Virus record (IMG/VR): IMGVR_UViG_3300045988_051752
From: a virus
Direction: 5' to 3' (one strand)
Length of the DNA: 42,218 bases
The notes under the pieces are model-generated. The model had not been told where the DNA came from. It searched no databases and saw only the letters and a program-made list of their open reading frames with translations. This document shows positions 1-25,640 of this stretch, in pieces. The stretch's first letter is position 1. Each line of letters begins with the position of its first letter. Made by a program: the position numbers and the translations under genes.

Positions 1-75
1 AAGCAAGGCCGGTAGAATTGACAGCGGAAGATTTACAAGAACCGCAGATTGACGCACAGGCAAAAGAAAAAAAAG
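1..75. repeat. Terminal direct repeat, copy A (identical to 42144-42218)
   Basis: Base-by-base comparison: aagcaaggccggtagaattgacagcggaagatttacaagaaccgcagattgacgcacaggcaaaagaaaaaaaag occurs at both ends. Confidence 0.97.
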
Positions 76-3000
76 CGGTGCAGGAAAATGTACGCCAAAG
101 AGAAAAAGTACCGGAAACGGGCGCACAGCGAAGCGTAGAAGGGGTAAATTACAAAGGACTACAGGGAGATATCGAAGGAATAGACCGGGTAGAGAACGGA
201 AAGATTTATGCACGGGTAAACACAGGGGATGCAACAATCGTACAGCCGGTAAGCAACTTAAACTTCGACAATGCTGTCACGCAGGCGCTCTACCAGACAG
301 CAGAAGGATACAAAGATGCCGGAGCAAGAAATTTCGTGATGGAGTACAACGGAGAAAGCCTGATAGCGTACAAAAAAGGATTCAATGCGTATTACGATGC
401 AGCAACTGTAGGAATCCCGATGGGGAAAGTAAACAGCGTATACGGAAACATGCTTACAGAAAAACAAAAAGCAGCGGCGTATGCAGCTGGAGAAACAGAT
501 CTTAATTTCGAACAAAGGCATGAAAACTTAAAAGTGGCGCGTGAGACCAAAACAGCAGGATCGCAGGTGCTGGAAAACGACGCTTTCAGAAGCCTGACGA
601 AGGAAAACCAGACAATATTAAAGGCATATGCAAAGATGTCCGGGGCAAACGTGGTGGTAGACGAGACAATTTCAGCAGGAAACGGACGGTATGCGAACGG
701 CTACTACGACAATAACGGAACGATCCATATTGCAGCGGATGCCACAAGCCCGATAAGCGTAGTGGCAAACCACGAACTGACGCACTACCTGCAGCAATAT
801 TCACCGATTTATGATGAGTACAAGAATGAGGTCATCAACTATCTGATGCAAAAAGAAAACATGCCATTGGACGGTTTGATCGAAAGACATATGTCAAATT
901 ATGAGAATGCAGGCCGCCAGATTTCCAGAGAGGAAGCTATGGACGAAATCGTGGCAAATGCAAGCGAAATGTTCCTGACGGATGAATCAGCAGTACAGCG
1001 GATGGTAAAAGAAAACAGATCCATCGGAGAGAAAGTGCTGGACTTCTTTAAAGAATTTATTTCGAACTTGAAGAAAATGCTCGAAGGATACGAACCGAAG
1101 AGCAAAGAAGCACAGATGCTGAATGAAGACTTGGAAATGGCACGAAAAACAGAAAAGATCTGGCTGGAAGCCATGCAGGATGCGAAGCGAACGGGGGGAG
1201 GAGATGCGAGCATAGAAAATGTAAATGTAGCAGTAGCGAATGACGGAAGTGCATATAGAACATATTCCTTGAAGACATGGAACGAATCGGAGTACGCGAC
1301 GGAGAAGAAAAAGGCAGCAGAGGAGCTGGCAGAAGCGATCGGAGTAACGAAAAGAACAGCAACCGAATATATCAACAACATAAATAGCATCGCGGCAATC
1401 ATCGCGGAAGACAAGGAGAGGCTTGACTATAAGGCGTCGCCATACGGGAGCGCGTGGAAGTCGAACGCTGAATACGGAGGGTCGATAGACATGTCGACGC
1501 TGTGCCCGAAAAGAAGAATGTATACAGGGACGGTAGCAGAGATACAGAAGGCGATGCCGAACACGGCTCTGACAGCAGAAGACTATGTAAGCATAAGGTC
1601 AATGATGATGGAGAAAGGATACGAGGTGGCTTGCGGATTCTGCTATGTAGAATCATCAAGAAAAGACATAGGAAAATACACGGGGGAATTTCTGGAACAA
1701 TATAAAAAGGATCACCCAGAAAGCAATTACACACAAGTGGACTTCAACACACCAGAAGGCCTGGAAAAAGTACAGGAGTCAGACAAGGGGGCATACGACA
1801 AGTATCTGGAATTCATGAACAGGCTCGCGCAAAGAAAACCGAAATTATTTGAAAACAGGACAGAGTACAGACATGAGATACTGGATGCATTTAAGAGAAA
1901 GGAGACAATAGAAAAGAAAAACAAAAACGGGGGAGTTAGGTTACAAAGCTTCTCGGATTTTGAAACGCCACATTTGATAGATATGATGCAGGTGATCATC
2001 GACATGTCGAGGGTAGGGCTTGGAGGACAAGCATACACAAAAATGCCGAACTTCGCATGGGCGCTCGGAGATACCGGATTAAAGATAAACCTATCATTGG
2101 TAGGAAATGTGGATGAAAAAGGAAACCTAACGTTTGATGATGTGGAGGGCATGCCGATAGATGAGGCAATGAAACTGAGGAAACGGTATTCAAAAAACGT
2201 AGGAACGATCCTTGTGGGAGTGAGTGACGAACACATACTGGCAGCAATGAAAGATGATAGGATAGACTTCATCATACCGTTTCACAGAAGCCAATGGAAC
2301 AAAAGCCTATACTCTGCGCTGGGGATAGATGGGTACAAAGATTACACAAAGCTGCAGAATGAAAGCTACATCGAAGAAAGACGAAACAAAAACGGGAAAA
2401 AGATGCGTCCAAGCAATTTTATGCCAAACGAATACTGGGATTATTCAAAAACCGGGAAACAGAATGCGGAAAAATACTTAGAAATGTGTGCAGAGGATGG
2501 AAGAATTCCGAAATTCAGCAATTTTCTTAAATACAATGAAGACGGAACGTGGTCACTGAAAGAAGACGGAAGCACAGATGGATATTGGAAATTGCTGGGA
2601 GATTTCAAGATGTACGACAACGAAGGAAAGGGATCACCGCAGAAACCGGTAAAGCCGAAATTTAACATGGATGAATGCGAAAGGATACTGAACGAATACG
2701 AAGGAGGGCACCAAAGTTTCCCTGTGGCAAAAGATGTCGTAAGAGAATTTCTGGAAGAAAGAAAAGATAAGAAATTCATGATAAAAGAAGACATCAGATA
2801 TCAGATGGAGGATGCCTCCGAAGTAGACTACGATACGCTGAAAGCGGAAAACAAGGACCTGAAAGAATTAAACAGCATATTGGGAGGAATGATAAAGGCA
2901 ACAAAGGGAATAGAACCGGACCAGGATGCGATAAAGAAGGTCGGAAAGAAAATTCTGAAAGACTATAACTCGGATTATAATCTGGATACATTTACAAGAA

Positions 3001-6000
3001 ATATGACCGGTATATGGAAGTATATATCAGGATCCAAAAACATAGACGCAGAGCAGGTGGCAATAGCCACGGCGGACATGGCAAAGGGAATCCTGGAACA
3101 CGCAAAGGTAAATGTAAACGAGAGATACGCAGAGCAGTATAAAGATCTGGCAAAAGAGGTAAGACAGATCAAGCTGGAAGTGCCGGAAGAGATGAGGGGA
3201 GATTTCGACCGGGAAGGAGGATACGCGGAATTCCGAAAGAGAAATTTCGGAACGTTAAAGCTGGGAAAAGAAGGACAGAGCATTGATTCCTACTACCAGT
3301 CCCTGGCAGAAAGATACCCGGAGCTGTTTGACGAAACTATATACACCAACCCTGCGGATCGGCTCATGCACATAGCGGAAGTGATGGAAAGTATAAAGCC
3401 GAAGTATGAAAATGCATTTGGAATGGATCTTGATGAAGCAGCAGCGGATCTGGCGCATGAAATCTATCAGTCGTATTTTGATATTGCAGCAGGAAAAGGC
3501 TCTATTGATTCGATCAGAAAGAATGTGATAGAAAAAGAGCGGTTGAAATACAAGAAATACAGGGAGAAAATGCGGGATGATTACAAAAAGTACAGGGAAG
3601 AGTACAGAGGGAATTTTGCGCAGAGAAGAAAGGAGAACTTTGAAAAGAAAGCCTATTCGAAAAACATCGAACAGACAGCAAACAGATTAAGCAGATGGCT
3701 TTTGAATCCGACGAACACCAACAGCGTACCGGAGAGTTTAAGGGGGCCGGTGGCTGAATTCTTAAATTCCATCAATTTAAGCAGTAAGGACGTGAATGTG
3801 TACGGAAATCCCACGCAGAGAACGCTTAAATGGCAGGCTCTATCAAGGGCATATGAGAATATCATCAAAGCGCAGGACAAGTCGGAATACACGGGACAAT
3901 TCATAGACCTGGATCCGGATCTGGTAAACATGCTGAATGATCTGACGGAAAAGAATAAAGAGGTAATGCTTGCAGATATGACTGTGCAGGACATGAAGGA
4001 ATTGAACCGGCTGATAATGGCTGTGAAAAAATCCATCGAAAGCACGAACACATTACTTGCAACAGAGAACTACAAGAGAGTGTCAGATCTGGGAGAGAAG
4101 TTCCTGGAAGAAAACGAGAAAAAAGAAAGTGCAAAGGAAAGTGTATACGGAACCGTAAATACAGCAAGAAACTTCATGAAGCTGGATATGTTGGATTCAA
4201 GGACGTATTTCAATTCACTGGGAAAAGCAGGAATGGATATATACGGGGCATTGAGAAGCGGACTGGACAAAAAAACGAGAAATATCAAAATTGCGCACGA
4301 CTACATAAAAAATCTGATAGGAGAAACAGATATATCAGAGTGGTCGGGAGACAAGGCGAAGCTGCACGAATTCGAAACCGAGGGAAGGGAAGAGTTAAAA
4401 CTCACAACAGCACAAGTCATGAGCCTGTACAGATTGCTACAGAGAGACCAGGCAAAGAAACACATTCTGGAAGGAGGAATAAGGCCGGAAAAAACCATAA
4501 CAAAAGCAGGGAAGCTCAAAAAAGAAGTTACAAGATACTATGAACCGATACGGGTAACCGAAAAAGACCTGCTGAACATCATAGACACACTGACGCCGGA
4601 GCAGAAAAGGATTGCTGATGGAATCACGGATTTCTTCACTTCAACAACATCTGCCTGGGGAAACGAAGTGTCCATGCAGTTGTACGGATACAGGAAATTC
4701 ATGGCAAGAAACTACTTCCCGATCGTTTCGGATAACAGCTTTACGAATTCGGCAAGCGGAGACCAGCAGGGAAACGTACAGACCTTGAAAAACATGGGAA
4801 GTACAAAAGCGACCGTGCCGCATGCAGGAAACCCGATCATATTACAGGATATTTTTGATGTATATGCAAGGCAGTCCGACCAGATGGCAAGCTACAATGC
4901 ATTTGTGGTGCCGCTAACAGACCTGCAGAAGTGGTACAACTACAGAGGAGATCCTACGATAACGAAGTACAAAAAATCTGTAAAACAGACCATAACAAGG
5001 ACAATGGGGCAAAATGGAAGGGCATATCTGGACACCTTGGTGCGGAGAATAAACGGAGTAGCCGAGAAAGAAACGGCAAAACAGATATGGTCAAGCCTGA
5101 CATCGAACATGAAGTCTGCGGCAATCGGAGCGAACTTAAGAGTTGTACTGCAGCAGCCGACGGCGATTGTAAGAGCAGCAACCGTGATCGATGCAAAGTA
5201 CCTGATGAAAGGAATGGCAAAAAAAGCGGACGGAGACCAGATGAAGAAGTACGCACCGATAGCACAGTGGAAAGACTGGGGATATTTCGAAATGGACACC
5301 GGCCGGCAGATGAAGGATGTTATTCTTGGGAAGGAATCGTTGAAAGACAAAGCAATGGCACCGGCAGGAATGGCCGATGACTTCACATGGGGGAAAATCT
5401 GGAATGCGGTATTGTATGAAACGAAGGATAAAACGGACTTAAAACCGGGATCGGAAGAATTCTATCAGGCAGCAGGAAAGAGATTCTCTGAAATCATCGA
5501 CAGAACACAGGTTGTCGATTCCATCCTGCACAGGTCAAGTGTAATGATCCAGAAGGACAATGCGACAAAAATGGCAACATCCTTTATGTCGGAGCCTATA
5601 AAAACCTACAACATGGTCTACGACACGCTGATGAACACGCCGGGAGGAAAGAAGGAAGTCGCAAAGAGCATGGCAAAGCTGCTGGTGATCCTGACGGTAC
5701 AAAATGCAGTGAACGCACTGGCGCAGACACTGGCGGATGTATGGAGAGATGATGACGATGAAACAGCATGGGTGGATGTAGAAACATGGAAAGATAATTT
5801 CAAAGACAACATGAATCCACTTACATACATTCCGTACTTAAAGGAGATACCTTCGATATGGCAGGGATTTTCGGCAGAAAGGACGGAAATGACGGGTATC
5901 ACGGATTCGGTGCAGGGATTACAGAAATGGATCAAATACTTCCAGGGAGAATCAAAGTATACGGCAGCAGGGCTTGTGAGAGAATCCATGAAACCGATCA

Positions 6001-6938
6001 GTGAGTTGTCGGGAATGCCAATAAACTCCACGCTCAGAGAGTTTGAAAGCCTGGCGGATTTGATTGCATGGAACTATCGCAAGGTAACAGGAAACGAAAC
6101 TGCGAAAGCCGAGTATGAGATCAAAAAGACATTTTACAGAGCAGGAAGTCCGAAGAACAGAAATATGTTCATCGGACTTTACGGAAGAGCAAGGGAAGAG
6201 GGGGATTACAAAACAGCAGCAGCCATCTATAACGATCTGCAAAAAGCCGGGAACACCAAAGAAAGGCTTGACAATGCGTATAAGAAATGGAAGAAGAAAA
6301 GGGATGAGGGACTGCTGGAAGCAGATGAAGGCTTGCAGAAGGAAATAACAGAGGCATACAAAAACAACGACATGGAAACATTCAAATCCGCATCGGAAGA
6401 ATTGAAGAGCAAGGGTATAGACATTAACACCGCGCTGGATCAGATTGAAGACGAGGAAAAAGAGGAAGAGGAATACGAAGTGTCGGAAGTAACGCCGGAA
6501 GACCTGCAGAAGGAAGATAACACAGCAGAACTATACACCTTGCTTTACATGGCGACCCAAAACAATGATACACAGGCGCAGAACACATACAAAAAGCAGC
6601 TGAAAGAAGCTGGGGAAAAAGAGGAGGACTTCCAGAAAAACCTTTTAAAAGAGCAAAATGCCAAGGCTAAGGCAACAGGGGGAACGGAGTATAGCTACGA
6701 TGCACTGTTCAATGCTCTGGTATCCACAGAAGGGAAAAACGGCAAAAAGTATAAGGAAATAGAACAGGGGCTGAAAAAATACGGAAAAGACGATTCCACA
6801 ATAAAAAAATCCATGAAGTCCAGATTAAAAACAGCATATATGAACAGCAGAGGAAACGACAGGCTCACGAAAAAATATTCCGATTTGCTGAGAAGCTTCG
6901 GAGTGGACACACAAACGATTAAAGGATGGCTGGAATAA
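1..6938 (+). CDS. Giant multidomain protein, 3' part (stop TAA 6936-6938); combined ORF is 9,069 nt = 3,022 aa
   Basis: The frame is open from the first base. The track starts it at an internal TTG (18) only because the window begins there. It contains an HExxH motif (HELTH, 771-785), a Cys cluster (CPKRR...ACGFCYVE, from about 1503), and a long K/E-rich C-terminal tail. Coding-strand purine bias produces many spurious antisense ORFs. Confidence 0.85.
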   Translation, partial: ARPVELTAEDLQEPQIDAQAKEKKAVQENVRQREKVPETGAQRSVEGVNYKGLQGDIEGIDRVENGKIYARVNTGDATIVQPVSNLNFDNAVTQALYQTAEGYKDAGARNFVMEYNGESLIAYKKGFNAYYDAATVGIPMGKVNSVYGNMLTEKQKAAAYAAGETDLNFEQRHENLKVARETKTAGSQVLENDAFRSLTKENQTILKAYAKMSGANVVVDETISAGNGRYANGYYDNNGTIHIAADATSPISVVANHELTHYLQQYSPIYDEYKNEVINYLMQKENMPLDGLIERHMSNYENAGRQISREEAMDEIVANASEMFLTDESAVQRMVKENRSIGEKVLDFFKEFISNLKKMLEGYEPKSKEAQMLNEDLEMARKTEKIWLEAMQDAKRTGGGDASIENVNVAVANDGSAYRTYSLKTWNESEYATEKKKAAEELAEAIGVTKRTATEYINNINSIAAIIAEDKERLDYKASPYGSAWKSNAEYGGSIDMSTLCPKRRMYTGTVAEIQKAMPNTALTAEDYVSIRSMMMEKGYEVACGFCYVESSRKDIGKYTGEFLEQYKKDHPESNYTQVDFNTPEGLEKVQESDKGAYDKYLEFMNRLAQRKPKLFENRTEYRHEILDAFKRKETIEKKNKNGGVRLQSFSDFETPHLIDMMQVIIDMSRVGLGGQAYTKMPNFAWALGDTGLKINLSLVGNVDEKGNLTFDDVEGMPIDEAMKLRKRYSKNVGTILVGVSDEHILAAMKDDRIDFIIPFHRSQWNKSLYSALGIDGYKDYTKLQNESYIEERRNKNGKKMRPSNFMPNEYWDYSKTGKQNAEKYLEMCAEDGRIPKFSNFLKYNEDGTWSLKEDGSTDGYWKLLGDFKMYDNEGKGSPQKPVKPKFNMDECERILNEYEGGHQSFPVAKDVVREFLEERKDKKFMIKEDIRYQMEDASEVDYDTLKAENKDLKELNSILGGMIKATKGIEPDQDAIKKVGKKILKDYNSDYNLDTFTRNMTGIWKYISGSKNIDAEQVAIATADMAKGILEHAKVNVNERYAEQYKDLAKEVRQIKLEVPEEMRGDFDREGGYAEFRKRNFGTLKLGKEGQSIDSYYQSLAERYPELFDETIYTNPADRLMHIAEVMESIKPKYENAFGMDLDEAAADLAHEIYQSYFDIAAGKGSIDSIRKNVIEKERLKYKKYREKMRDDYKKYREEYRGNFAQRRKENFEKKAYSKNIEQTANRLSRWLLNPTNTNSVPESLRGPVAEFLNSINLSSKDVNVYGNPTQRTLKWQALSRAYENIIKAQDKSEYTGQFIDLDPDLVNMLNDLTEKNKEVMLADMTVQDMKELNRLIMAVKKSIESTNTLLATENYKRVSDLGEKFLEENEKKESAKESVYGTVNTARNFMKLDMLDSRTYFNSLGKAGMDIYGALRSGLDKKTRNIKIAHDYIKNLIGETDISEWSGDKAKLHEFETEGREELKLTTAQVMSLYRLLQRDQAKKHILEGGIRPEKTITKAGKLKKEVTRYYEPIRVTEKDLLNIIDTLTPEQKRIADGITDFFTSTTSAWGNEVSMQLYGYRKFMARNYFPIVSDNSFTNSASGDQQGNVQTLKNMGSTKATVPHAGNPIILQDIFDVYARQSDQMASYNAFVVPLTDLQKWYNYRGDPTITKYKKSVKQTITRTMGQNGRAYLDTLVRRINGVAEKETAKQIWSSLTSNMKSAAIGANLRVVLQQPTAIVRAATVIDAKYLMKGMAKKADGDQMKKYAPIAQWKDWGYFEMDTGRQMKDVILGKESLKDKAMAPAGMADDFTWGKIWNAVLYETKDKTDLKPGSEEFYQAAGKRFSEIIDRTQVVDSILHRSSVMIQKDNATKMATSFMSEPIKTYNMVYDTLMNTPGGKKEVAKSMAKLLVILTVQNAVNALAQTLADVWRDDDDETAWVDVETWKDNFKDNMNPLTYIPYLKEIPSIWQGFSAERTEMTGITDSVQGLQKWIKYFQGESKYTAAGLVRESMKPISELSGMPINSTLREFESLADLIAWNYRKVTGNETAKAEYEIKKTFYRAGSPKNRNMFIGLYGRAREEGDYKTAAAIYNDLQKAGNTKERLDNAYKKWKKKRDEGLLEADEGLQKEITEAYKNNDMETFKSASEELKSKGIDINTALDQIEDEEKEEEEYEVSEVTPEDLQKEDNTAELYTLLYMATQNNDTQAQNTYKKQLKEAGEKEEDFQKNLLKEQNAKAKATGGTEYSYDALFNALVSTEGKNGKKYKEIEQGLKKYGKDDSTIKKSMKSRLKTAYMNSRGNDRLTKKYSDLLRSFGVDTQTIKGWLE
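771..785 (+). other. HExxH (HELTH) zincin-type metallopeptidase motif inside the giant ORF
   Basis: Sequence context is IHIAADATSPISVVANHELTHYLQQYSP. This is the classic zinc-binding HExxH pattern preceded by a hydrophobic strand. Assignment to the polyvalent-protein metallopeptidase family is from memory, not a search. Confidence 0.5.
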
Positions 6939-9692: not shown

Positions 9693-9757
9693 GTGTATAT
9701 TATAGTAATCATCGTTGTACTGGTTCGTCGGTACAACGATGATAGAATTATATACAC
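9693..9757. other. Candidate attP: 65-bp imperfect palindrome abutting the integrase 3' end
   Basis: Outer arms gtgtatat (9693-9700) / atatacac (9750-9757). Inner arms atcatcgttgtac (9708-9720) / gtacaacgatgat (9731-9743). 10-bp centre tggttcgtcg. Overlaps the integrase stop codon (9748-9750). Confidence 0.4.
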
Positions 9758-11307
9758 AAATTTGCGTCAACAGAAATATCCCAGACAATCCAGCCACGGT
9801 TCGTGGCACCGGCCTTTCTGACCGGGGGCTCCCGGTAATAGGAAATCTTCTCGATACAGGATTTTAACATACGGTTCTTGGCCTCTGCGGTAATGTCTGA
9901 ATCATCCAGGGCGGCGAGAGCAGCGGAGAACCGGCCGCGTTTTTCCTCAATGGCCTCCCGGGTGGGAACTTCGGAGAGAATGGAATAGATAGAAGCCTGC
10001 ACAGCGGCCTTATCTTCGGCCACACGCCGGTTCAGTTCATCGAATACGTTTTTTGGCATTTGTTCCTCGGCGTACTTATCCCACAGAGAGATTTCTTTCT
10101 TATCCAGGGCGGCCAGGCGCAAGCGAAGCGAGGAGAGCGTTTCTTCCCGGGAGGCCATGGCGGCAGCAGAATCTTTGAGCTGCACGTCAAAATCGTGAAT
10201 GGCCTGCTTCAAAATGCGGACAACGATTTCTTCCGCCTCCTCGAAAGTACAGGAACCGGTATGGCAGACACGCTGCATATCACAGAGGATACGGGGGCCA
10301 GTCTTGGGGTATGTGTGATAGCTCATGGCGTGGCCACACCGGCAGACGAAAAGACCGGCAAAAGGATTACGAACCTTCACCTTATCCTTGGCACGGGTGA
10401 CCTTCCCGGAGATTTTCTGGGCAGCGCCAAACAGCTCCGAATCAATGATTGCCGGGTGCCTGCCGTCGTGCAGCTCATATTCGCTGCTCCATGGGCGGCT
10501 GGATTCCACGGAGCCGCTATGAACGGAGTGGACAACCTTCCGACGGTTCCAGAAAACTTTTCCGGTATAGACGGGGTTCTGCAGGATACTCTTCACGCAG
10601 TTATATGTCCACGAATCATTGTTTCGAGGATGAGTACCTTGGAGGTTCAGCTGCTTGGCAATACGGGAGGGGCCAAGATCTTCGACGGCCCGCATTCGGA
10701 AGATCTGTCGGACAACAGAAGCTTCGGCGGGATTGATGCAAAGCGTGTAATGCTTCTTCTTTCCTTCCAGGACAAAGGTCTTGTCATACCCGTAAGGGGC
10801 AACGGAACCGATGTAATCGCCCTGACGGACGGCTTGCAGGCGGCCGCGGCTCATGATCTTCTTCTGATATTCCAGATATTCATTTCCTCTTTTCAGCTCA
10901 CGTTCAAAGATATCCCGATCGTATTCGTCGGACAGGTCATAAGTTTTGCTGGGTGTGATGACATTCGTGCGGGTGTAGCGAAGGATCTTGATGAGACGCC
11001 CTGCGTCTTCCAGGTCGCCGCGGGAGAGACGCTGAACCTCAACGCACAAAATGGCTTTAATGGCTGGAGATTCAATACGCCGGAGAACGGAGAGAAATTC
11101 CGGGCGGTCGTCAATCGTCTCCCCGGACACGACCTCTCGATATTTGTTTTCTGCTGGGATACAGCAGTCATGCCTTTCGGCCCAATCAGATAAAATGGAT
11201 TCGTGCTTTTGCAGCACATCTTCGACGGATAGACTGGGATCATCGGCCCTGGATTTTCGCAGGTACTCGATGATCTCATCAGAACGATAAGAAAGTTCTC
11301 GATACAT
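9748..11307 (-). CDS. int: Large serine recombinase (integrase), phiC31/SpoIVCA class
   Basis: N-terminal resolvase motifs YLRKSRAD (catalytic Ser), DRPEFLSVLRRIE and VEVQRLSRGD. Central recombinase domain, Cys-rich zinc ribbon CRCGHAMS...CDMQRVCHTGSC, C-terminal coiled coil. RBS AGGGGGA. Confidence 0.92.
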   Translation of the reverse strand: MYRELSYRSDEIIEYLRKSRADDPSLSVEDVLQKHESILSDWAERHDCCIPAENKYREVVSGETIDDRPEFLSVLRRIESPAIKAILCVEVQRLSRGDLEDAGRLIKILRYTRTNVITPSKTYDLSDEYDRDIFERELKRGNEYLEYQKKIMSRGRLQAVRQGDYIGSVAPYGYDKTFVLEGKKKHYTLCINPAEASVVRQIFRMRAVEDLGPSRIAKQLNLQGTHPRNNDSWTYNCVKSILQNPVYTGKVFWNRRKVVHSVHSGSVESSRPWSSEYELHDGRHPAIIDSELFGAAQKISGKVTRAKDKVKVRNPFAGLFVCRCGHAMSYHTYPKTGPRILCDMQRVCHTGSCTFEEAEEIVVRILKQAIHDFDVQLKDSAAAMASREETLSSLRLRLAALDKKEISLWDKYAEEQMPKNVFDELNRRVAEDKAAVQASIYSILSEVPTREAIEEKRGRFSAALAALDDSDITAEAKNRMLKSCIEKISYYREPPVRKAGATNRGWIVWDISVDANLCI

Positions 11308-11325: not shown

Positions 11326-11901
11326 TTAATAATTCTCTTTTTTAACATACACGGATTCTCTTCCAGAATCAACTGCTTTTTGGACAATATCCTCATCAGG
11401 CAGAGGGTCATCGGGGCCGGTAAGCTCATCTCTGGCACGGCGCATCCGGTAGATATCCATAACAATACCGGCAGCAGACACACGGTCAAGAAGCGGAATG
11501 TGGCTGTGCGCAGTGAAAAGGTGCAGCTTCGGGATCCAGTGAGAGATATGGTCACCGAAGATGATGTAGTGCAGCATCTTTTTATGCTTCGGAATTTCTG
11601 TATCCAGATACATCCGCAGGGCGGCGTCGATATCCTCATCGGATTTAGCCTCATAAAGCAGATGATACTTTCCGGGGTTATAGATAAACATCAGGTATTT
11701 TTCGGGATCAACGCCGCATAATTCGAACCATTTTAGAATAAGTGGAAGACTGGGAGCACCAATTTCATTTTCCCAATTCTGAATAGTCCCGACACTTTTT
11801 GACATTTTTCTTGCCATGTACTGTTGCGTGTGCCCTGCCAGGTCTCGGGTTGTAAGAAGAGCCCTGGCCGTGAGCTGCGTGTATTCCACTACGTCTTTCA
11901 T
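11326..11901 (-). CDS. HTH (XRE-like) DNA-binding protein with an uncharacterised C-terminal domain (191 aa)
   Basis: ATG at 11901, 7 nt after AAAGGGG. HTH segment HTQQYMARKMSKSVGTIQNWENEIGAPS. Directly upstream of int and probably co-transcribed with it. Confidence 0.7.
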   Translation of the reverse strand: MKDVVEYTQLTARALLTTRDLAGHTQQYMARKMSKSVGTIQNWENEIGAPSLPLILKWFELCGVDPEKYLMFIYNPGKYHLLYEAKSDEDIDAALRMYLDTEIPKHKKMLHYIIFGDHISHWIPKLHLFTAHSHIPLLDRVSAAGIVMDIYRMRRARDELTGPDDPLPDEDIVQKAVDSGRESVYVKKENY

Positions 11902-11992
11902 AGAATCGCCCCTTTGCCAAGACAAAATTTTGAGTAAATTGAAGGACAAAATAATCAAAAAATTTTGGTGATAAAAAATAAAGAGTAACTAA

Positions 11993-13575: not shown

Positions 13576-13599
13576 AAGAGGATGTTTACACATCCTCTT
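13576..13599 (-). terminator. Intrinsic terminator for the repressor gene (10-bp perfect stem overlapping its last codons)
   Basis: aagaggatgt-ttac-acatcctctt. On the minus strand it is followed by the T-rich ttctcttg. Confidence 0.6.
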
Positions 13600-13954
13600 C
13601 GAAAATTTCTCTCATCTTACGCTCCAGAAAAGCCCATTCATCCACGGTCATGGTGGAAAGGGCAGATATAAACCGCTTCTTGAAGCCCTCGTCAATCTGC
13701 ACCTCTCCGAAGAATCTTGCCAGCTGGAGATCTCTGGACAGATCCACGAACATATCGCCGGTTCCGTCCCGGAGCCAATCCTCCGAAATATTGAACTCCC
13801 GGCAGATGGATTTGCACATTTGATCTGTAAGAGAACGGTTCCCACATTCGATGTTAGAAACAGCAGTTTTGCCAACACCGAGACGCTCTCCGAATTTTTC
13901 CAGCGTAAGGTCGAGAGATTTGCGCGCCTCTCTCACGCGTTCACCTCGTGTCAC
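13586..13954 (-). CDS. XRE-family (CI-like) repressor, 122 aa
   Basis: GTG at 13954, 6 nt after AGGAGGTG. HTH LTLEKFGERLGVGKTAVSNIECGNRSL. Divergent from the early operon. Confidence 0.85.
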   Translation of the reverse strand: MTRGERVREARKSLDLTLEKFGERLGVGKTAVSNIECGNRSLTDQMCKSICREFNISEDWLRDGTGDMFVDLSRDLQLARFFGEVQIDEGFKKRFISALSTMTVDEWAFLERKMREIFEEDV

Positions 13955-14033
13955 GTATTTCACCTCCTGAATACAGAGTACCACCAAAAAAGAAAAAAAT
14001 CAATAAAAAAGTCCACAAAGGAAACAAAAGGCA

Positions 14034-20850: not shown

Positions 20851-21734
20851 ATGGATATCGAAAAAGAAAAACGGGCAATACAATACCTCCGGTCATTCGA
20901 ACCGGAGGAAGAGCCTTATTATTTGTGCTATTCCGGCGGGAAAGACAGCGACGCCATCAGGATTCTTGCACAGCTGGCGGGGGTGAAGCACGAATGCAAA
21001 CATAATCTGACAACTGTGGATGCTCCGGAGACCGTGCGATACGTCCGGGAGACGATCGGGAAGGAAAACATCAACTACCCGAAAGAATCCATGTGGCAGC
21101 TGATCGTGAGAAAGAGGATGCCGCCGACCGGAATTGCACGATATTGCTGCGAAGTACTGAAAGAACGCGGAGGAGAAGGACGGCTCAAGATCACGGGTGT
21201 TAGGTGGGATGAAAGCAGAAAAAGAAAAGAGAATGCTGGAATCGTAAGAGTTATCGGCAAAGAAAAGACGATGCAAAAGAAGCTAAAGGATGACGAGGTA
21301 AATTTTCAGTCAACGCCTATGGGGGGGTGGTATTAAGTACAGACAACGCAAAAGAAAGGAGATTTGTAGAGTATTGCTACCGTACAACAAACACGACGAT
21401 AAACCCGATCGTGGACTGGACGGACAGGGATGTGTGGGAATTTTTACACCATTACGGCTGTGAATCAAATCCACTTTATCAATGCGGATTTGATAGGATT
21501 GGGTGCATCGGCTGCCCGTTAGCTGGCGGAAAACAAATGAAAGCCGAGCTTGCAAGGTATCCAAAGTATAAAGAGGCTTACATAAGGGCATTTGACCGGA
21601 TGCTGGAGAAGAGAAAAGCGGACGGATTACCGACAAAGTGGATCAACGGCGAGCAAGTCATGCGCTGGTGGGTTGGAGATGATCCGAACCAGATAACAAT
21701 AGACGATTATCTAAAAATGACAGGAGGGATATGA
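20851..21734 (+). pseudogene. PAPS-reductase/PP-loop family gene split by a frameshift in a G7 tract (intact length would be 294 aa)
   Basis: The N-terminal part has the PP-loop YYLCYSGGKDSDAI and stops at 21336 (...STPMGGWY*). The -1 frame continues VVLSTDNAKERRFVEYCY...NPLYQCGFDRIGCIGCPLA to 21734. One extra G (G8) fuses them. Confidence 0.75.
21321..21327. repeat. G7 homopolymer at the frameshift point
   Basis: tatGGGGGGGtgg. Zero-frame codons are ATG GGG GGG TGG TAT TAA. Confidence 0.95.
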
Positions 21735-23382: not shown

Positions 23383-23504
23383 GTCCAATACATTGGATGC
23401 TATGTATTGTGGTATCCCTAGCAATCCCGGGGATCGCGGATTGAAATAGTGACAGTAATAATTACAAAAAAAGAAAGAGCAGGAAAACCTACTCTTTCTT
23501 TTTT
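23383..23504 (+). ncRNA. Candidate ~120-nt small RNA (promoter-to-terminator unit with no credible ORF)
   Basis: Hairpin 1: caatacat (23386-23393) / atgtattg (23402-23409). Hairpin 2: caatcc (23422-23427) / ggattg (23438-23443). Terminator hairpin at 23471-23500 plus T-tail. Only 15-codon ORFs lacking an SD are present. Confidence 0.35.
23471..23504. terminator. Bidirectional intrinsic terminator
   Basis: aagaaagag-(12-nt loop)-ctctttctt, flanked by an A-run on one side and a T-run on the other. Sits immediately after the stop of minus-strand gene 23504..23791. Confidence 0.75.
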
Positions 23505-23791
23505 CACGCGTTCTTCCCAGCTCCGTAGCACTCGTGGAAACTATCCACGAGAGAAGCCAGTTGCTCGGGAGAAAGCTGCTCCCGCAATTCTTCCGGAACC
23601 CACTTGTAACTCTCCCGGAAAGTATCAGGGAACCGGCCGATCTTGCTGAGCTTTTTGACAAGCTCGAGCTTATACATCTGACCGAGCTCATCAAGGGTGA
23701 TATCCACGTCATCGACTACCTGGCGGCCTTCTTCTGTCAGGATGCCCATTGCATCCTGAATCTTTACTCTTCCAACCCCTTGGATGTACAT
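23504..23791 (-). CDS. Hypothetical protein, 95 aa (4th gene of the RHH cassette)
   Basis: RBS GAGGTGG. No motif recognised. Confidence 0.7.
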   Translation of the reverse strand: MYIQGVGRVKIQDAMGILTEEGRQVVDDVDITLDELGQMYKLELVKKLSKIGRFPDTFRESYKWVPEELREQLSPEQLASLVDSFHECYGAGKNA

Positions 23792-23802
23792 GACACCACC
23801 TC

Positions 23803-24042
23803 CTATGCAAATCTGCCCGTCTTAAGGGCACAATAACGATTCCCGTCGTCACCCCAGAAAAAGATGGCGCAAGGGTAAGACTGCCGCAAACATTCTTCTC
23901 CGTATTCGGTTACGGGTTGAATGTTGACCGGGCAGTCATAGCCAGCAACCGCATAGGTTCCGGCCTCTTCTGCCTGCTCCAGGGTTTCCGGTTCCGGGAT
24001 TTCCTGCGCTCCATATCTGGGGCTCAAAATAGCTTTCTTCAT
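23803..24042 (-). CDS. Hypothetical Cys-containing protein, 79 aa (3rd gene of the RHH cassette)
   Basis: RBS GAGGAGG. Its start overlaps the upstream stop. Confidence 0.7.
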   Translation of the reverse strand: MKKAILSPRYGAQEIPEPETLEQAEEAGTYAVAGYDCPVNIQPVTEYGEECLRQSYPCAIFFWGDDGNRYCALKTGRFA

Positions 24043-24287
24043 TCTTCTTCCTCCTCGGGGTAATATTCCTGCACAAATTTTTCGACTTCATCCGCCGTCA
24101 TGAGCCCGCCGAATTCTTCTACCATGATGCGAATCTCCGTGGAAGCAATGGCATCCCGGGCGCGTTCGGACAGATCAAGACGATCAAGGAAATCCATGAC
24201 CTGCTCATTAAGGGTTACAAGATCGGCACCCCCCTTATTGACGATTTGCGAAATTTCGTTTACGCTCATATCCTCGTACTTTTTCAT
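24039..24287 (-). CDS. Highly acidic small protein, 82 aa, ending in EEEEE (2nd gene of the RHH cassette)
   Basis: RBS GGAGAA. D/E-rich throughout. ATGA-type overlap with neighbouring genes. Confidence 0.7.
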   Translation of the reverse strand: MKKYEDMSVNEISQIVNKGGADLVTLNEQVMDFLDRLDLSERARDAIASTEIRIMVEEFGGLMTADEVEKFVQEYYPEEEEE

Positions 24288-24466
24288 CTATTAATTCTCC
24301 TTTCTACGCACTCGACAATGAATGCGTTCAAGCTTTTTCCTTCGGCCTCTGCGGCCGCTTTGTATTCAGCCTTCTTTCCCTTCGAGACCGTGATGTTAAG
24401 GCGATCATAGTTATTGGCTATGTATTTGTTCACGGCCCTCTGGGATGCCTTAGTTGTCCCTGACAT
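24284..24466 (-). CDS. Ribbon-helix-helix (Arc/CopG/MetJ-type) DNA-binding protein, 60 aa
   Basis: RBS AAGGAGGTG. ASQRAVNKYIANNYDRLNITVSKGKKAEYKAAAEAEGKSLNAFIVECVERRI fits the beta-strand + two-helix RHH pattern. Confidence 0.7.
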   Translation of the reverse strand: MSGTTKASQRAVNKYIANNYDRLNITVSKGKKAEYKAAAEAEGKSLNAFIVECVERRINR

Positions 24467-24487
24467 TCAAGCACCTCCTTTAAATAC

Positions 24488-24516
24488 ATAATATCACAAC
24501 AATATATTTGTGTAAA
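24488..24516 (-). promoter_or_regulatory. Promoter of the RHH cassette: TTTACA-N17-TATTAT (minus strand)
   Basis: -35 is the complement of 24511-24516; -10 is the complement of 24488-24493. Operator 1 overlaps the -35 and the spacer. Confidence 0.55.
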
Positions 24517-24586
24517 TATACATACTGCACAAATATATTTACGCAAATATGGTAATTTTGCCGATTGATATATTTACTCAAATATA
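24503..24586. promoter_or_regulatory. Three palindromic operators, TATATTT-N4-AAATATA
   Basis: Op1 24503-24520 (perfect), Op2 24534-24551 (6/7 per arm), Op3 24569-24586 (perfect). Centre-to-centre spacing is 31 and 35 bp. They lie between divergent promoters. Confidence 0.65.
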
Positions 24587-24593
24587 ATACAAT
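24565..24593 (+). promoter_or_regulatory. Divergent promoter TTGATA-N17-TACAAT
   Basis: -35 at 24565-24570, -10 at 24588-24593. Operator 3 fills the spacer. Confidence 0.5.
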
Positions 24594-24641
24594 AGAATCA
24601 TCAAGAATAGGAAAACAAAAAAACAGGAGGAAAGGGAAAAT

Positions 24642-24779
24642 ATGGAGAAATACTATATAAGCTATAATGATTATTTTGGATTTTGCGTGGTTGAAGAAAT
24701 TGGAGGAAATGGAAGAATTGTATTTGCAGGAAGTATTGAGGACTGCAATAGAAAATGCATCGAACTGAACGAAAAATAA
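24642..24779 (+). CDS. Small ORF, 45 aa (MEKYYISYNDYFGFCVVEEIGGNGRIVFAGSIEDCNRKCIELNEK)
   Basis: AGGAGGAAAGGGA lies upstream of ATG at 24642. Followed by a terminator. Below the track cutoff. Confidence 0.45.
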   Translation: MEKYYISYNDYFGFCVVEEIGGNGRIVFAGSIEDCNRKCIELNEK

Positions 24780-24800
24780 AAAAAGAGTATAAAAGCAAAG

Positions 24801-24823
24801 CAGGGACAGGCTCCCTGTTTTTT
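24801..24823 (+). terminator. Intrinsic terminator immediately upstream of terS
   Basis: caggga-caggc-tccctg followed by tttttt. Confidence 0.75.
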
Positions 24824-24890
24824 ACGCGGTAAAAGGGAGAATAAAAAACGAACATCAGATAAAATGATTGAGAAGGAGGTGACCGCCGGT

Positions 24891-25640
24891 GTGACAAAGG
24901 AAGAGACAAGAAAAAAGAAAAATGAAGCGCTGATTATGTACAAAAAAGGGAAAAAGCTTGTCGAGATCGCTCAGATTCTCGGAATCCCAAACGGGACGAT
25001 CCGCCGGTGGAAATGTGAGGATGGCTGGGATGGCGAACGTTCGGCCAGAAAAAGCGAACGTTCGGAAAAGAAAAAGCAAAAACCCATTAAAGAAGAAAAG
25101 AGGGAAAAGGCCTGCGATCTGGATATTACAGAAAAAAGAGAGCTTTTTTGCCTGTACTACGTAAAATACCGCAACAAGGTAAAGGCATACCAAAAGGCTT
25201 TCAGCTGCTCATATGAAACGGCGTGCGGAAACGCCTCTAATTTATCGAAAAATATTGATGTAAAAGCAAGAATTGACGAACTATTAACGGATTTGCACGA
25301 AAACATAGAATTTACTATACAGGACATAGCGCAAAAGCAGATAGACATCGCCACGGCGGATATAAAAGATTTTGTCAACCTGGAAGACGGGGTGGTGATA
25401 CTACGGGATGCGGATGAGATAGACGGGACACTCATCAAATCTATAAAAAATACAAAATTTGGCATACAGGTACAGCTAAAGGACAGTCAAAAAGCGCTGG
25501 AGTGGCTGACGGTAAACCAGCCAAAAGAAACAAGAGGCACAGAAAACCGGATAGAGATCACAAAAAGAAAGGAGAGACCAAATGGTCATATGGACACCAC
25601 AATACAAGCAGAGCCTGTTCATGGAGCGCTGGGAGGATGA
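24891..25640 (+). CDS. terS: Terminase small subunit (N-terminal HTH + Terminase_2-like domain)
   Basis: GTG at 24891 is 9 nt after AAGGAGGTG (the track ATG at 24864 has no RBS). KLVEIAQILGIPNGTIRRWKCEDGWD, then ITEKRELFCLYYVKYRNKVKAYQKAFSCSYETACGNASNL. Confidence 0.85.
   Translation: MTKEETRKKKNEALIMYKKGKKLVEIAQILGIPNGTIRRWKCEDGWDGERSARKSERSEKKKQKPIKEEKREKACDLDITEKRELFCLYYVKYRNKVKAYQKAFSCSYETACGNASNLSKNIDVKARIDELLTDLHENIEFTIQDIAQKQIDIATADIKDFVNLEDGVVILRDADEIDGTLIKSIKNTKFGIQVQLKDSQKALEWLTVNQPKETRGTENRIEITKRKERPNGHMDTTIQAEPVHGALGG

Follow-up and report, generated by a model that had tools for sequence, protein, structure and literature searches.

The 42,218-nt viral contig IMGVR_UViG_3300045988_051752, referred to at its full length as the window, comes from a temperate phage of gut Firmicutes and contains, just upstream of terS, a compact divergent locus headed by the gene for a putative ribbon-helix-helix (RHH) repressor. 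We read it as an autorepressed accessory locus devoted to interaction with the host, a reading to which we assign a probability of roughly 0.5. We are considerably more confident of the regulatory architecture, in which the RHH protein would control its own leftward operon and a divergent rightward gene from three palindromic operators, and we propose only tentatively, at odds somewhat below even, that the cargo serves specifically in counter-defence. The elements of the locus, in the order of their coordinates, are as follows.

23464-23507, both strands: bidirectional intrinsic terminator, with a 20-bp stem and a T-run, overlapping the p95 stop codon
23504-23791, minus strand: p95, 95 aa, pI 4.8
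23803-24042, minus strand: cys79, 79 aa, pI 4.5, four Cys
24039-24287, minus strand: acid82, 82 aa, pI 4.14, net charge -14, C-terminus EEEEE
24284-24466, minus strand: putative RHH repressor gene at the head of the leftward operon, 60 aa, pI 9.8
24516..24488, minus strand: predicted leftward promoter, TTTACA-N17-TATTAT with a TG upstream of the -10 (10/12 matches), serving RHH, acid82, cys79 and p95
24503-24520: putative operator O1, TATATTTGTGTAAATATA, over the -35 of the leftward promoter
24534-24551: putative operator O2, TATATTTACGCAAATATG, with 1 mismatch, between both promoters
24565..24593, plus strand: predicted rightward promoter, TTGATA-N17-TACAAT (10/12 matches), serving orf45
24569-24586: putative operator O3, TATATTTACTCAAATATA, filling the spacer of the rightward promoter
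24642-24779, plus strand: orf45, 45 aa, pI 4.6, divergent from the RHH operon
24801-24825, plus strand: intrinsic terminator of the orf45 unit, CAGGGA-CAGGC-TCCCTG (CAGGGACAGGCTCCCTG) plus T6, before terS

The four minus-strand open reading frames (ORFs) of 60, 82, 79 and 95 aa lie where the initial annotation, made from the letters of this DNA and their ORFs, had placed them, and each is preceded by a strong Shine-Dalgarno (SD) sequence, that of p95 being its own AGGAGGTGG. Of these genes, described as translationally coupled, the first three overlap by 4 nt (ATGA), and p95 starts 11 nt past the cys79 stop codon. The poly-Glu codons of acid82 double as the SD (GAGGAGGAAGAAGAATGA) of the next gene, cys79, and the acidic tail is retained also where no gene comes after it. 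The terminator at 23464-23507 has a free energy of -23.9 kcal/mol (z -7.0) on the minus strand and of -17.3 kcal/mol (z -6.0) on the plus strand, and it both closes the cassette and terminates the upstream plus-strand early operon. That at 24801-24825 is weaker (-12.7 kcal/mol, z -2.5) and lies ca. 40 nt upstream of terS; an Rfam search on the terminator returned only sub-threshold noise. The cassette is thus autonomous, as had been suggested, and it does not end at 24600, since the divergent orf45 and its terminator also belong to it. A consensus scan found no further sigma-70-like promoter in 24600-24900; no recognisable promoter could thus be assigned to the packaging and late operon itself, and the closest one upstream on the plus strand is that covered by O3.

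Three palindromes of the form TATATTT-N4-AAATATA had been described between the divergent genes, and all three were recovered at the same positions with no more than two mismatches. Their number is far above the 0.19 copies expected from dinucleotide shuffles, with 0/100 shuffles reaching three, and no further copy occurs in the 42-kb window. The centres are 31 and 35 bp apart, equivalent to ca. 3 to 3.3 helical turns and in agreement with the spacing of about three turns first proposed. Motif and promoter scans likewise reproduced the placement of O1 over the leftward -35 and of O3 in the spacer of the divergent promoter.

The leader protein is of the Arc-fold RHH type, as it had been recognised by eye, according to Pfam, PHROG and family-profile matches. 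The best Pfam matches of the 60-aa protein were TacA1 (E=1.7e-4), HicB (4.4e-4) and ParD (6.6e-3), and in PHROG it matched phrog_13890 (9e-15; function not known) and Arc-like repressors (3e-3). A profile from a family alignment of 15 sequences, homologues from related loci (A5), matched P22 Arc in the PDB (1b28, E=4.7e-5, Arc residues 6-50) and the CopG-family protein 7ak7 (E=0.005), and on these profile comparisons the fold assignment is sound. For a five-sequence profile (A4) the best PDB match, a non-significant one, had been to the C-terminal DNA-binding domain of H-NS (E=0.1), with shared GKSLxxF and KYxY motifs; the larger alignment favoured Arc, and the H-NS match is probably due to chance. 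The RHH domain occupies residues ca. 20-58 of 60 and has no C-terminal extension; its strand-helix-helix is preceded by an N-terminal arm (RAVNKYIANNYD) with the conserved form (S/T)RA(K/V)NKY-x-A-x-NYD.

Aca14 is the first RHH-type anti-CRISPR-associated (Aca) regulator, and acts through AT-rich inverted repeats to repress its own operon and an anti-defence operon next to it (bioRxiv 10.64898/2026.07.27.740549). Using the Aca14 sequences HDR1349883.1 and WP_005725436.1, hhalign aligned A5 with Aca14 at 94.8% (E=5e-8) over 49 columns that include the Y-N-x-x-N-Y arm. The comparators scored lower, with 76.5% (E=2e-5) for Arc, 58% for CopG, 48% for Mnt and at most 2.4% for shuffled Aca14, the Arc sequence used being corroborated by the PDB alignment. 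Aca14 would be the nearest characterised relative that we found, the kinship being remote. In tblastn searches of cultured/GenBank phages and PLSDB plasmids there was one unannotated match each for p95 and for the RHH protein, and none for acid82; the RHH protein of the window had no match on PLSDB plasmids.

The palindromes are very likely the cognate operators of the RHH protein, because close relatives conserve them, with invariant arms, and palindromes of a related form are found with distant homologues. All six close relatives, whose terS is at least 94% identical, have kept the three palindromes as well as the two promoters; the arms do not vary and the 4-bp centres do, and the rightward -10 is TACAAT or TATAAT. 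On unrelated viral contigs, each of eight distant RHH homologues (43-53% identity) is directly preceded by two to three TATACT-N6-AGTATA palindromes, and the homologue from the 45.5-kb phage L057 (65% identity) has TATACTTG-N2-CAAGTATA, with a symmetric T-to-C / A-to-G change with respect to the window. Overall, of the 40 non-redundant regions upstream of RHH-family genes, 11 have at least two perfect same-arm palindromes, compared with 0.1 expected from shuffles. The DNA specificity of the switch appears to co-vary with the protein. A divergent RHH-like branch (34% identity; L001 type, L001 3500-3719) is accompanied by five direct repeats of TATAAGGCACAAA and by no palindromes.

From this arrangement we infer actual repression, as well as a function of the cargo, in the following terms. 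Encoded by the first gene of the leftward operon, the RHH protein would bind the three 18-bp palindromes as dimers, and the 31- and 35-bp spacing of their centres would allow cooperative binding. Occupancy of O1 would block the -35 of its own promoter, and occupancy of O3 would cover the spacer of the divergent one. Both promoters are near consensus and may fire fully upon DNA entry (or induction), until accumulating RHH protein damps its own operon and orf45, resulting in a burst followed by a low set-point. The cargo proteins would in turn act by binding host proteins, most likely those of defence systems, or in another function of host takeover. A burst-then-clamp scheme of this kind has been established by experiment for Aca proteins (bioRxiv 10.64898/2026.07.27.740549), and it is established as well for the RHH regulator Reg_p576 of Bacillus plasmids (PMC8708921).

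The genes had been described as a four-gene cassette, and whether it moves as a unit among unrelated phages had been put as a question; a fixed cassette does not hold, because near-identical phages swap acid82 and/or cys79 for unrelated genes. The gene contents found, on the window and on related contigs, were these.

Window, L011 and L056: RHH, acid82, cys79, p95
L007: RHH, an unrelated 102-aa protein, cys79, p95
L008, L009 and L010: RHH, an unrelated 77-aa protein, p95
L057, 45.5-kb phage: a gene for a 182-aa product whose N-terminal part is homologous to RHH, then, translationally coupled to it, one for an acid82 homologue (83% identity), both between lysin and integrase
L001-type prophages of 55-60 kb: RHH-like, p95, acid82 homologue
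L161: RHH, cys79 homologue, p95, upstream of and co-directional with a different terS family
L162: orf45 and cys79 homologues in one operon, with an RHH-domain protein divergent

The near-identical phages (terS at least 94% identical) retain RHH, the operators, p95 and orf45, and the RHH protein is 83-88% identical among phages in which its neighbour is acid82, the 102-aa or the 77-aa protein. The five genes RHH, p95, acid82, cys79 and orf45 recur, with shuffled order, in at least four phage backgrounds of gut Firmicutes, and the recurrent core consists of RHH (or a helix-turn-helix, HTH, gene), p95 and the divergent orf45, the last of which was not part of the cassette as first delimited. An extra ORF of 54 aa (MTRKFFERV...) is found between the O3-controlled promoter and orf45 in L007 (4456-4620), L008 (4538-4702), L009, L010 and L056; neither the window nor L011 has it, and the rightward unit is therefore also variable. 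Distant RHH homologues are followed by other genes: in L151 (3673-4149) the homologue has palindromes of the same type and precedes a gene for a YolD-like protein (PF08863, 6e-13), and in L153 (4436-5305) an ATP-dependent DNA ligase gene (PF01068, 3e-27) comes after it, with a 95-aa ORF in between.

The surroundings of p95 were surveyed with hidden Markov models (HMMs) over 91 non-redundant p95 loci. In 37 of them p95 has an RHH-family gene upstream on its own strand, and in ca. 40 an HTH_26 (PF13443) gene directly precedes it; orf45 is found upstream in 21, divergent in every case, and acid82 on the same strand in 10. The gene directly downstream of p95, in turn, belongs to at least 20 unrelated families in 85 loci. 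Between the family of the window and the unrelated family of 55-60 kb phages, orf45 is 78-86% identical and p95 59-69%; the higher identity of orf45 suggests a recent exchange. In L001, L003 and ca. 56 other p95 loci there is a conserved untranslated gap of ca. 90-95 nt between the regulator gene (HTH_26 or RHH-like) and p95.

The position of p95 in these loci also bears on a different explanation, that of a secondary immunity region of the P22 immI type, in which the RHH protein would play the part of Arc and a small antirepressor, most plausibly p95, would inactivate a CI-like repressor for induction or override of immunity. In 58/91 other loci p95 comes directly after a Cro-like HTH_26 or RHH gene, and ant genes in many Gram-positive phages sit directly after a Cro-like regulator. 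Likewise, the A5 profile matches the Arc repressor, the RHH gene is promoter-proximal with an operator over divergent promoters, as in the Pant/Pmnt organisation of P22, and the serine integrase and HTH repressors mark the phage as temperate. Nevertheless, none of the cargo proteins matched ANT, Bro-N or KilA at E<=1, and there is no Mnt-like second repressor, orf45 being unmatched by the RHH HMM or by any Pfam model. Moreover, the RHH protein is nearer to Aca14 than to Arc or Mnt, an operon with nothing other than an autorepressor would presumably idle at its set-point in lysogens, a dangerous state if the product is an antirepressor, and the variable extra genes are left unexplained. We consequently regard this explanation as improbable. 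The Arc/Mnt-type switch of the initial annotation is retained as to its Arc-fold RHH protein and its divergent promoters, and loses Ant and Mnt, both absent; the accompanying option that the cargo is a set of antirepressors is disfavoured, with no Ant-family protein and no equivalent of Mnt.

The downstream proteins had been described as of unknown families and indeed p95, acid82 and cys79 have no match in Pfam, PHROG, PADLOC, NCBIfam or the PDB; orf45 gave nothing significant in Pfam, PHROGs, PADLOC and NCBIfam. Sequence and profile searches of the PDB with p95, acid82 and cys79 returned only noise. All the cargo proteins are small and acidic (pI 4.1-4.8), which fits protein-binding inhibitors without proving such a role.

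The p95 family comprises at least 143 clusters at 90% identity, all of them at least 59% identical to the query, with 26 invariant columns. An AlphaFold2 model of p95 (predicted local distance difference test, pLDDT, 89.5; predicted template-modelling score 0.80) has an N-terminal hairpin and six helices. Foldseek did not find a match to this fold in the PDB (best E=2.6) or in BFVD (best E=0.07, partial), and 48 p95 homologues compared with the family libraries gave nothing significant. The label 'DUF3887' of one homologue record in nr was not reproduced by family search. Two specific roles were rejected for p95: that of a recombination directionality factor of the serine integrase, as one prophage with a p95 homologue has an integrase of the tyrosine type (PF00589), and that of a packaging accessory linked to terS, as p95 is absent with distant terS and present with unrelated terminases.

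The acid82 protein is helical and its family is small, with 82 clusters among 1.84e9 representatives. It has the conserved core LDxLxLSxRAxxxIxxTDxxxMAExFGGLxTxEEVE, in addition to the acidic tail. Its AlphaFold2 model is poor (pLDDT 63), with uninformative Foldseek matches, and 10 longer representatives had no informative Pfam domain. The metagenome scan for acid82 was done with a narrow alignment. In L172 (16-513), a 3.9-kb metagenome contig with a coverage of 4.4, RHH and acid82 homologues are in one 165-aa frame with an aberrant C-terminus, which is either a genuine fusion of regulator and cargo, as in self-regulating anti-CRISPR (Acr) proteins, or an assembly error. In L166 (metagenome contig OGKG01000131.1, 3001-5298), and equally in L165 and L167-L170, the gene for a 292-aa HTH_3 protein is closely preceded by a 102-aa ORF and an acid82 homologue (61% identity), and is translationally coupled to a type I-C Cas5d (cas5c) gene (PF09704, E=1.4e-34); an ORF judged by eye to be Cas8c-like follows the Cas5d gene, and there is no cas3 upstream. 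The acid82 homologue is 1.4 kb upstream of this HTH-cas5c-cas8c operon, which represents a single metagenomic lineage and was not found in IMG/VR.

The cys79 family has 17 clusters. The four Cys noted in its 79-aa product are present, and they are not conserved in homologues, where they are replaced; no metal site is implied because of this lack of conservation, and the idea of a zinc site was rejected.

Taken together with its regulator, this cargo could alternatively be a prophage moron of benefit to the host, for toxin-antitoxin (TA) or abortive infection functions (an RHH-toxin pair or a trio of the omega-epsilon-zeta kind) or for superinfection exclusion. The locus has its own promoter and terminator and an orientation opposite to that of its neighbours; the best Pfam matches of the RHH protein are the antitoxin families TacA1, HicB and ParD; and an RHH gene followed by one for an acidic helical protein of ca. 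80 aa recalls omega-epsilon, in which a regulator precedes a product of just that kind. The RHH-acid82 pair of L057, between lysin and integrase, also occupies a classic moron site. However, the RHH domain reaches the C-terminus and so leaves no toxin-neutralising tail, its adjacent gene differs among near-identical phages, and searches of Pfam, NCBIfam and PADLOC revealed neither a toxin nor a defence family. Additionally, every candidate 'toxin' is a small acidic protein, other lineages have the regulator and p95 uncoupled, at a distance of ca. 90 nt, and nothing toxin-like comes after acid80 in L057. A moron of this sort is thus an unlikely alternative in our estimation, and the RHH-antitoxin/toxin option of the initial annotation is disfavoured on the same grounds, namely that there is no toxin-binding tail, a variable neighbour and no toxin family.

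A third possibility is that p95 and its regulator form a core developmental module, as an accessory of early or middle transcription or of replication, in which the RHH protein may additionally gate the packaging operon, with late transcription then arising by read-through of the terminator at 24801-24825. This would be in keeping with the presence of p95 in every close relative and the conservation of its family (more than 140 clusters at 59% identity or more, with 26 invariant positions), with the position of the locus directly upstream of terS both here and in L161, where terS is of a different family, and with the O3-covered promoter being the only one of sigma-70-like sequence upstream of terS. 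The initial annotation had considered whether the downstream proteins might be core proteins present in all relatives: this is so for p95 among the close relatives, and it fails for acid82 and cys79, which are optional, as well as for p95 itself at distant terS (31-50% identity), where it is absent. Furthermore, p95 is found alongside unrelated terminases, portals and integrases, which indicates no co-evolution with packaging or integration genes, and the hypervariability of the genes beside it is typical of an accessory region. Between orf45 and terS there is a terminator, and late promoters are often dependent on an activator and invisible to consensus scans. A core module therefore has, in our view, a low probability.

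The proposal that the cargo of this autorepressed locus acts on host or defence proteins is based on the kinship of the regulator, the mobility and diversity of the cargo, the small and acidic nature of its products and a neighbourhood rich in DNA modification genes. Several observations weigh against it. Neither the cargo nor its alternates in relatives had an anti-defence match by sequence among characterised families or solved structures (PDB, Pfam), and p95 had none by fold (PDB, BFVD). Pairwise BLASTP of the RHH protein with Aca14 gave no alignment, and the fold is common to all RHH proteins. The aca gene of acr operons is usually the last, not the first. RHH-family regulators also lead cargo that does not look like anti-defence (YolD-like protein, DNA ligase) and hence they are not diagnostic. 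Finally, the presence of p95 in all close relatives, at 59% identity or more, would fit a core function in phage development as well. Anti-defence cargo was one of the options offered by the initial annotation, and it gains indirect support from the RHH family being closest to Aca14 and none from matches to known anti-defence proteins. The most specific form of this idea, which we hold as a conjecture less likely than not, is that p95, acid82, cys79 and orf45 are four unrecognised families of counter-defence proteins (anti-CRISPR, anti-restriction or other), pooled under Aca14-like RHH or HTH_26 regulators, with p95 as a widespread inhibitor.

Viral contigs related to the window come from human gut metagenomes and measure 41-42.5 kb, as the window does, and the GTDB genomes with p95 homologues are from Ruminococcus, Otoolea, Cottocaccamicrobium and one Selenomonadaceae bin. 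The products encoded elsewhere in the window include a replication initiator, an ASCH protein, terS, terL and a portal, in addition to the following.

9748-11307: serine integrase
13586-13987 and 11326-11958: candidates for a CI-like (HTH) repressor

The locus had been presented as a minus-strand island in 30 kb of otherwise plus-strand genes; the island is real, in a plus-strand stretch of ca. 26 kb (14.1-40 kb). The sign of the GC skew is inverted exactly over 23.4-24.5 kb, and a foreign base composition of the cassette was ruled out, its GC content of 0.47-0.52 being equal to that of the flanks. Its upstream neighbours are two DNA methyltransferase genes and a gene similar to those of phosphoadenosine phosphosulfate (PAPS) reductases (phrog_424). 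The latter consists of two overlapping ORFs, 20851-21336 and 21327-21734, corresponding to profile positions 144-293 and 294-377, a split that points to a frameshift, to programmed recoding or to a pseudogene. The Aca14 preprint (bioRxiv 10.64898/2026.07.27.740549) discusses PAPS reductases among candidate anti-defence genes under Aca control. At the extreme start of the window there is a single plus-strand ORF of 2306 aa (18-6938).

If a counter-defence role of the cargo is true, Aca14-like RHH genes with TATAYT-N6-ARTATA operators would provide a guilt-by-association handle for immunity inhibitors in phages of gut Lachnospiraceae and Ruminococcaceae, and RHH-type Aca regulation, known as of mid-2026 from Proteobacteria only, would extend to phages of Firmicutes. 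To our knowledge, almost no anti-defence genes are known in phages of these gut Lachnospiraceae and Ruminococcaceae, which are hard to culture. Protein p95, being well folded, highly conserved and devoid of structural relatives, is an attractive target for structural and functional work. Whatever the role of the cargo, the RHH switch with its three operators and two promoters is compact and portable, and may serve as a regulatory part.

Among known systems, the locus may be compared first with those of Aca14. Both have a small RHH protein with an N-terminal arm carrying Y-N-x-x-N-Y, both have AT-rich TATAT-armed inverted repeats overlapping the promoter of their own operon (here O1, with O3 over the divergent promoter), and in both the regulator controls its own and an adjoining operon, as is predicted here, with cargo that is small, variable and mostly of unknown function. 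The operator of Aca14, TGTATATGTAAGCATATACA, is a TATAT-armed inverted repeat (Supplementary Table S2, bioRxiv 10.64898/2026.07.27.740549). In contrast, the Aca14 loci are Proteobacterial and contain validated AcrIF23, AcrIF6, AcrVA3 and Csx20, whereas the window is from a phage of a gut Firmicute and has no known Acr; its RHH gene is also the first of the operon, and there are three operators instead of one per promoter.

With P22 immI the locus shares an Arc-fold RHH gene placed first in its operon, a palindromic operator over a divergent promoter pair and a location, within a temperate phage, away from its main immunity region of CI/Cro type. It differs in having no Ant-family antirepressor, in a divergent gene that codes for a 45-aa non-RHH protein instead of Mnt, in three operators as opposed to one site for an Arc tetramer, and in its variable cargo.

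The Reg_p576 regulator of pLS20-family Bacillus plasmids is an autoregulated RHH protein that heads its operon and controls anti-restriction (ardC) and unknown establishment genes; cargo genes of this regulon are often replaced, and a transient burst on entry has been proposed (PMC8708921). The likeness lies in a mobile element of Firmicutes with an RHH gene heading a small operon, operators flanking several promoters and replaceable cargo, and the difference in that Reg_p576 belongs to plasmids, not phages, and that the locus in the window has no ArdC-like gene. From RHH-type TA modules and omega-epsilon-zeta, which also have an RHH autorepressor gene leading a small operon with tight coupling and, as second gene, one for an acidic helical protein of ca. 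80 aa, it differs by having no toxin family, no toxin-binding extension and no fixed partners. It is similar to morons in its own promoter and terminator, its orientation opposite to the flanks and its variable gene content among near-identical genomes, and unlike them in its dedicated repressor with an array of three sites, its divergent second unit and a GC content equal to that of the flanks; the whole island is nonetheless present in 6/6 close relatives.

The claim that this is an undescribed system consequently holds for the cargo families and not for the regulatory architecture. Autorepressed accessory operons of the Arc-like or Aca-like kind were already known, and RHH-type Aca regulation was described in 2026. 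What is new here is the occurrence of such a locus in phages of gut Firmicutes, its bidirectional layout with the regulator first and three operators, and four uncharacterised cargo families that include p95, a well-folded orphan.

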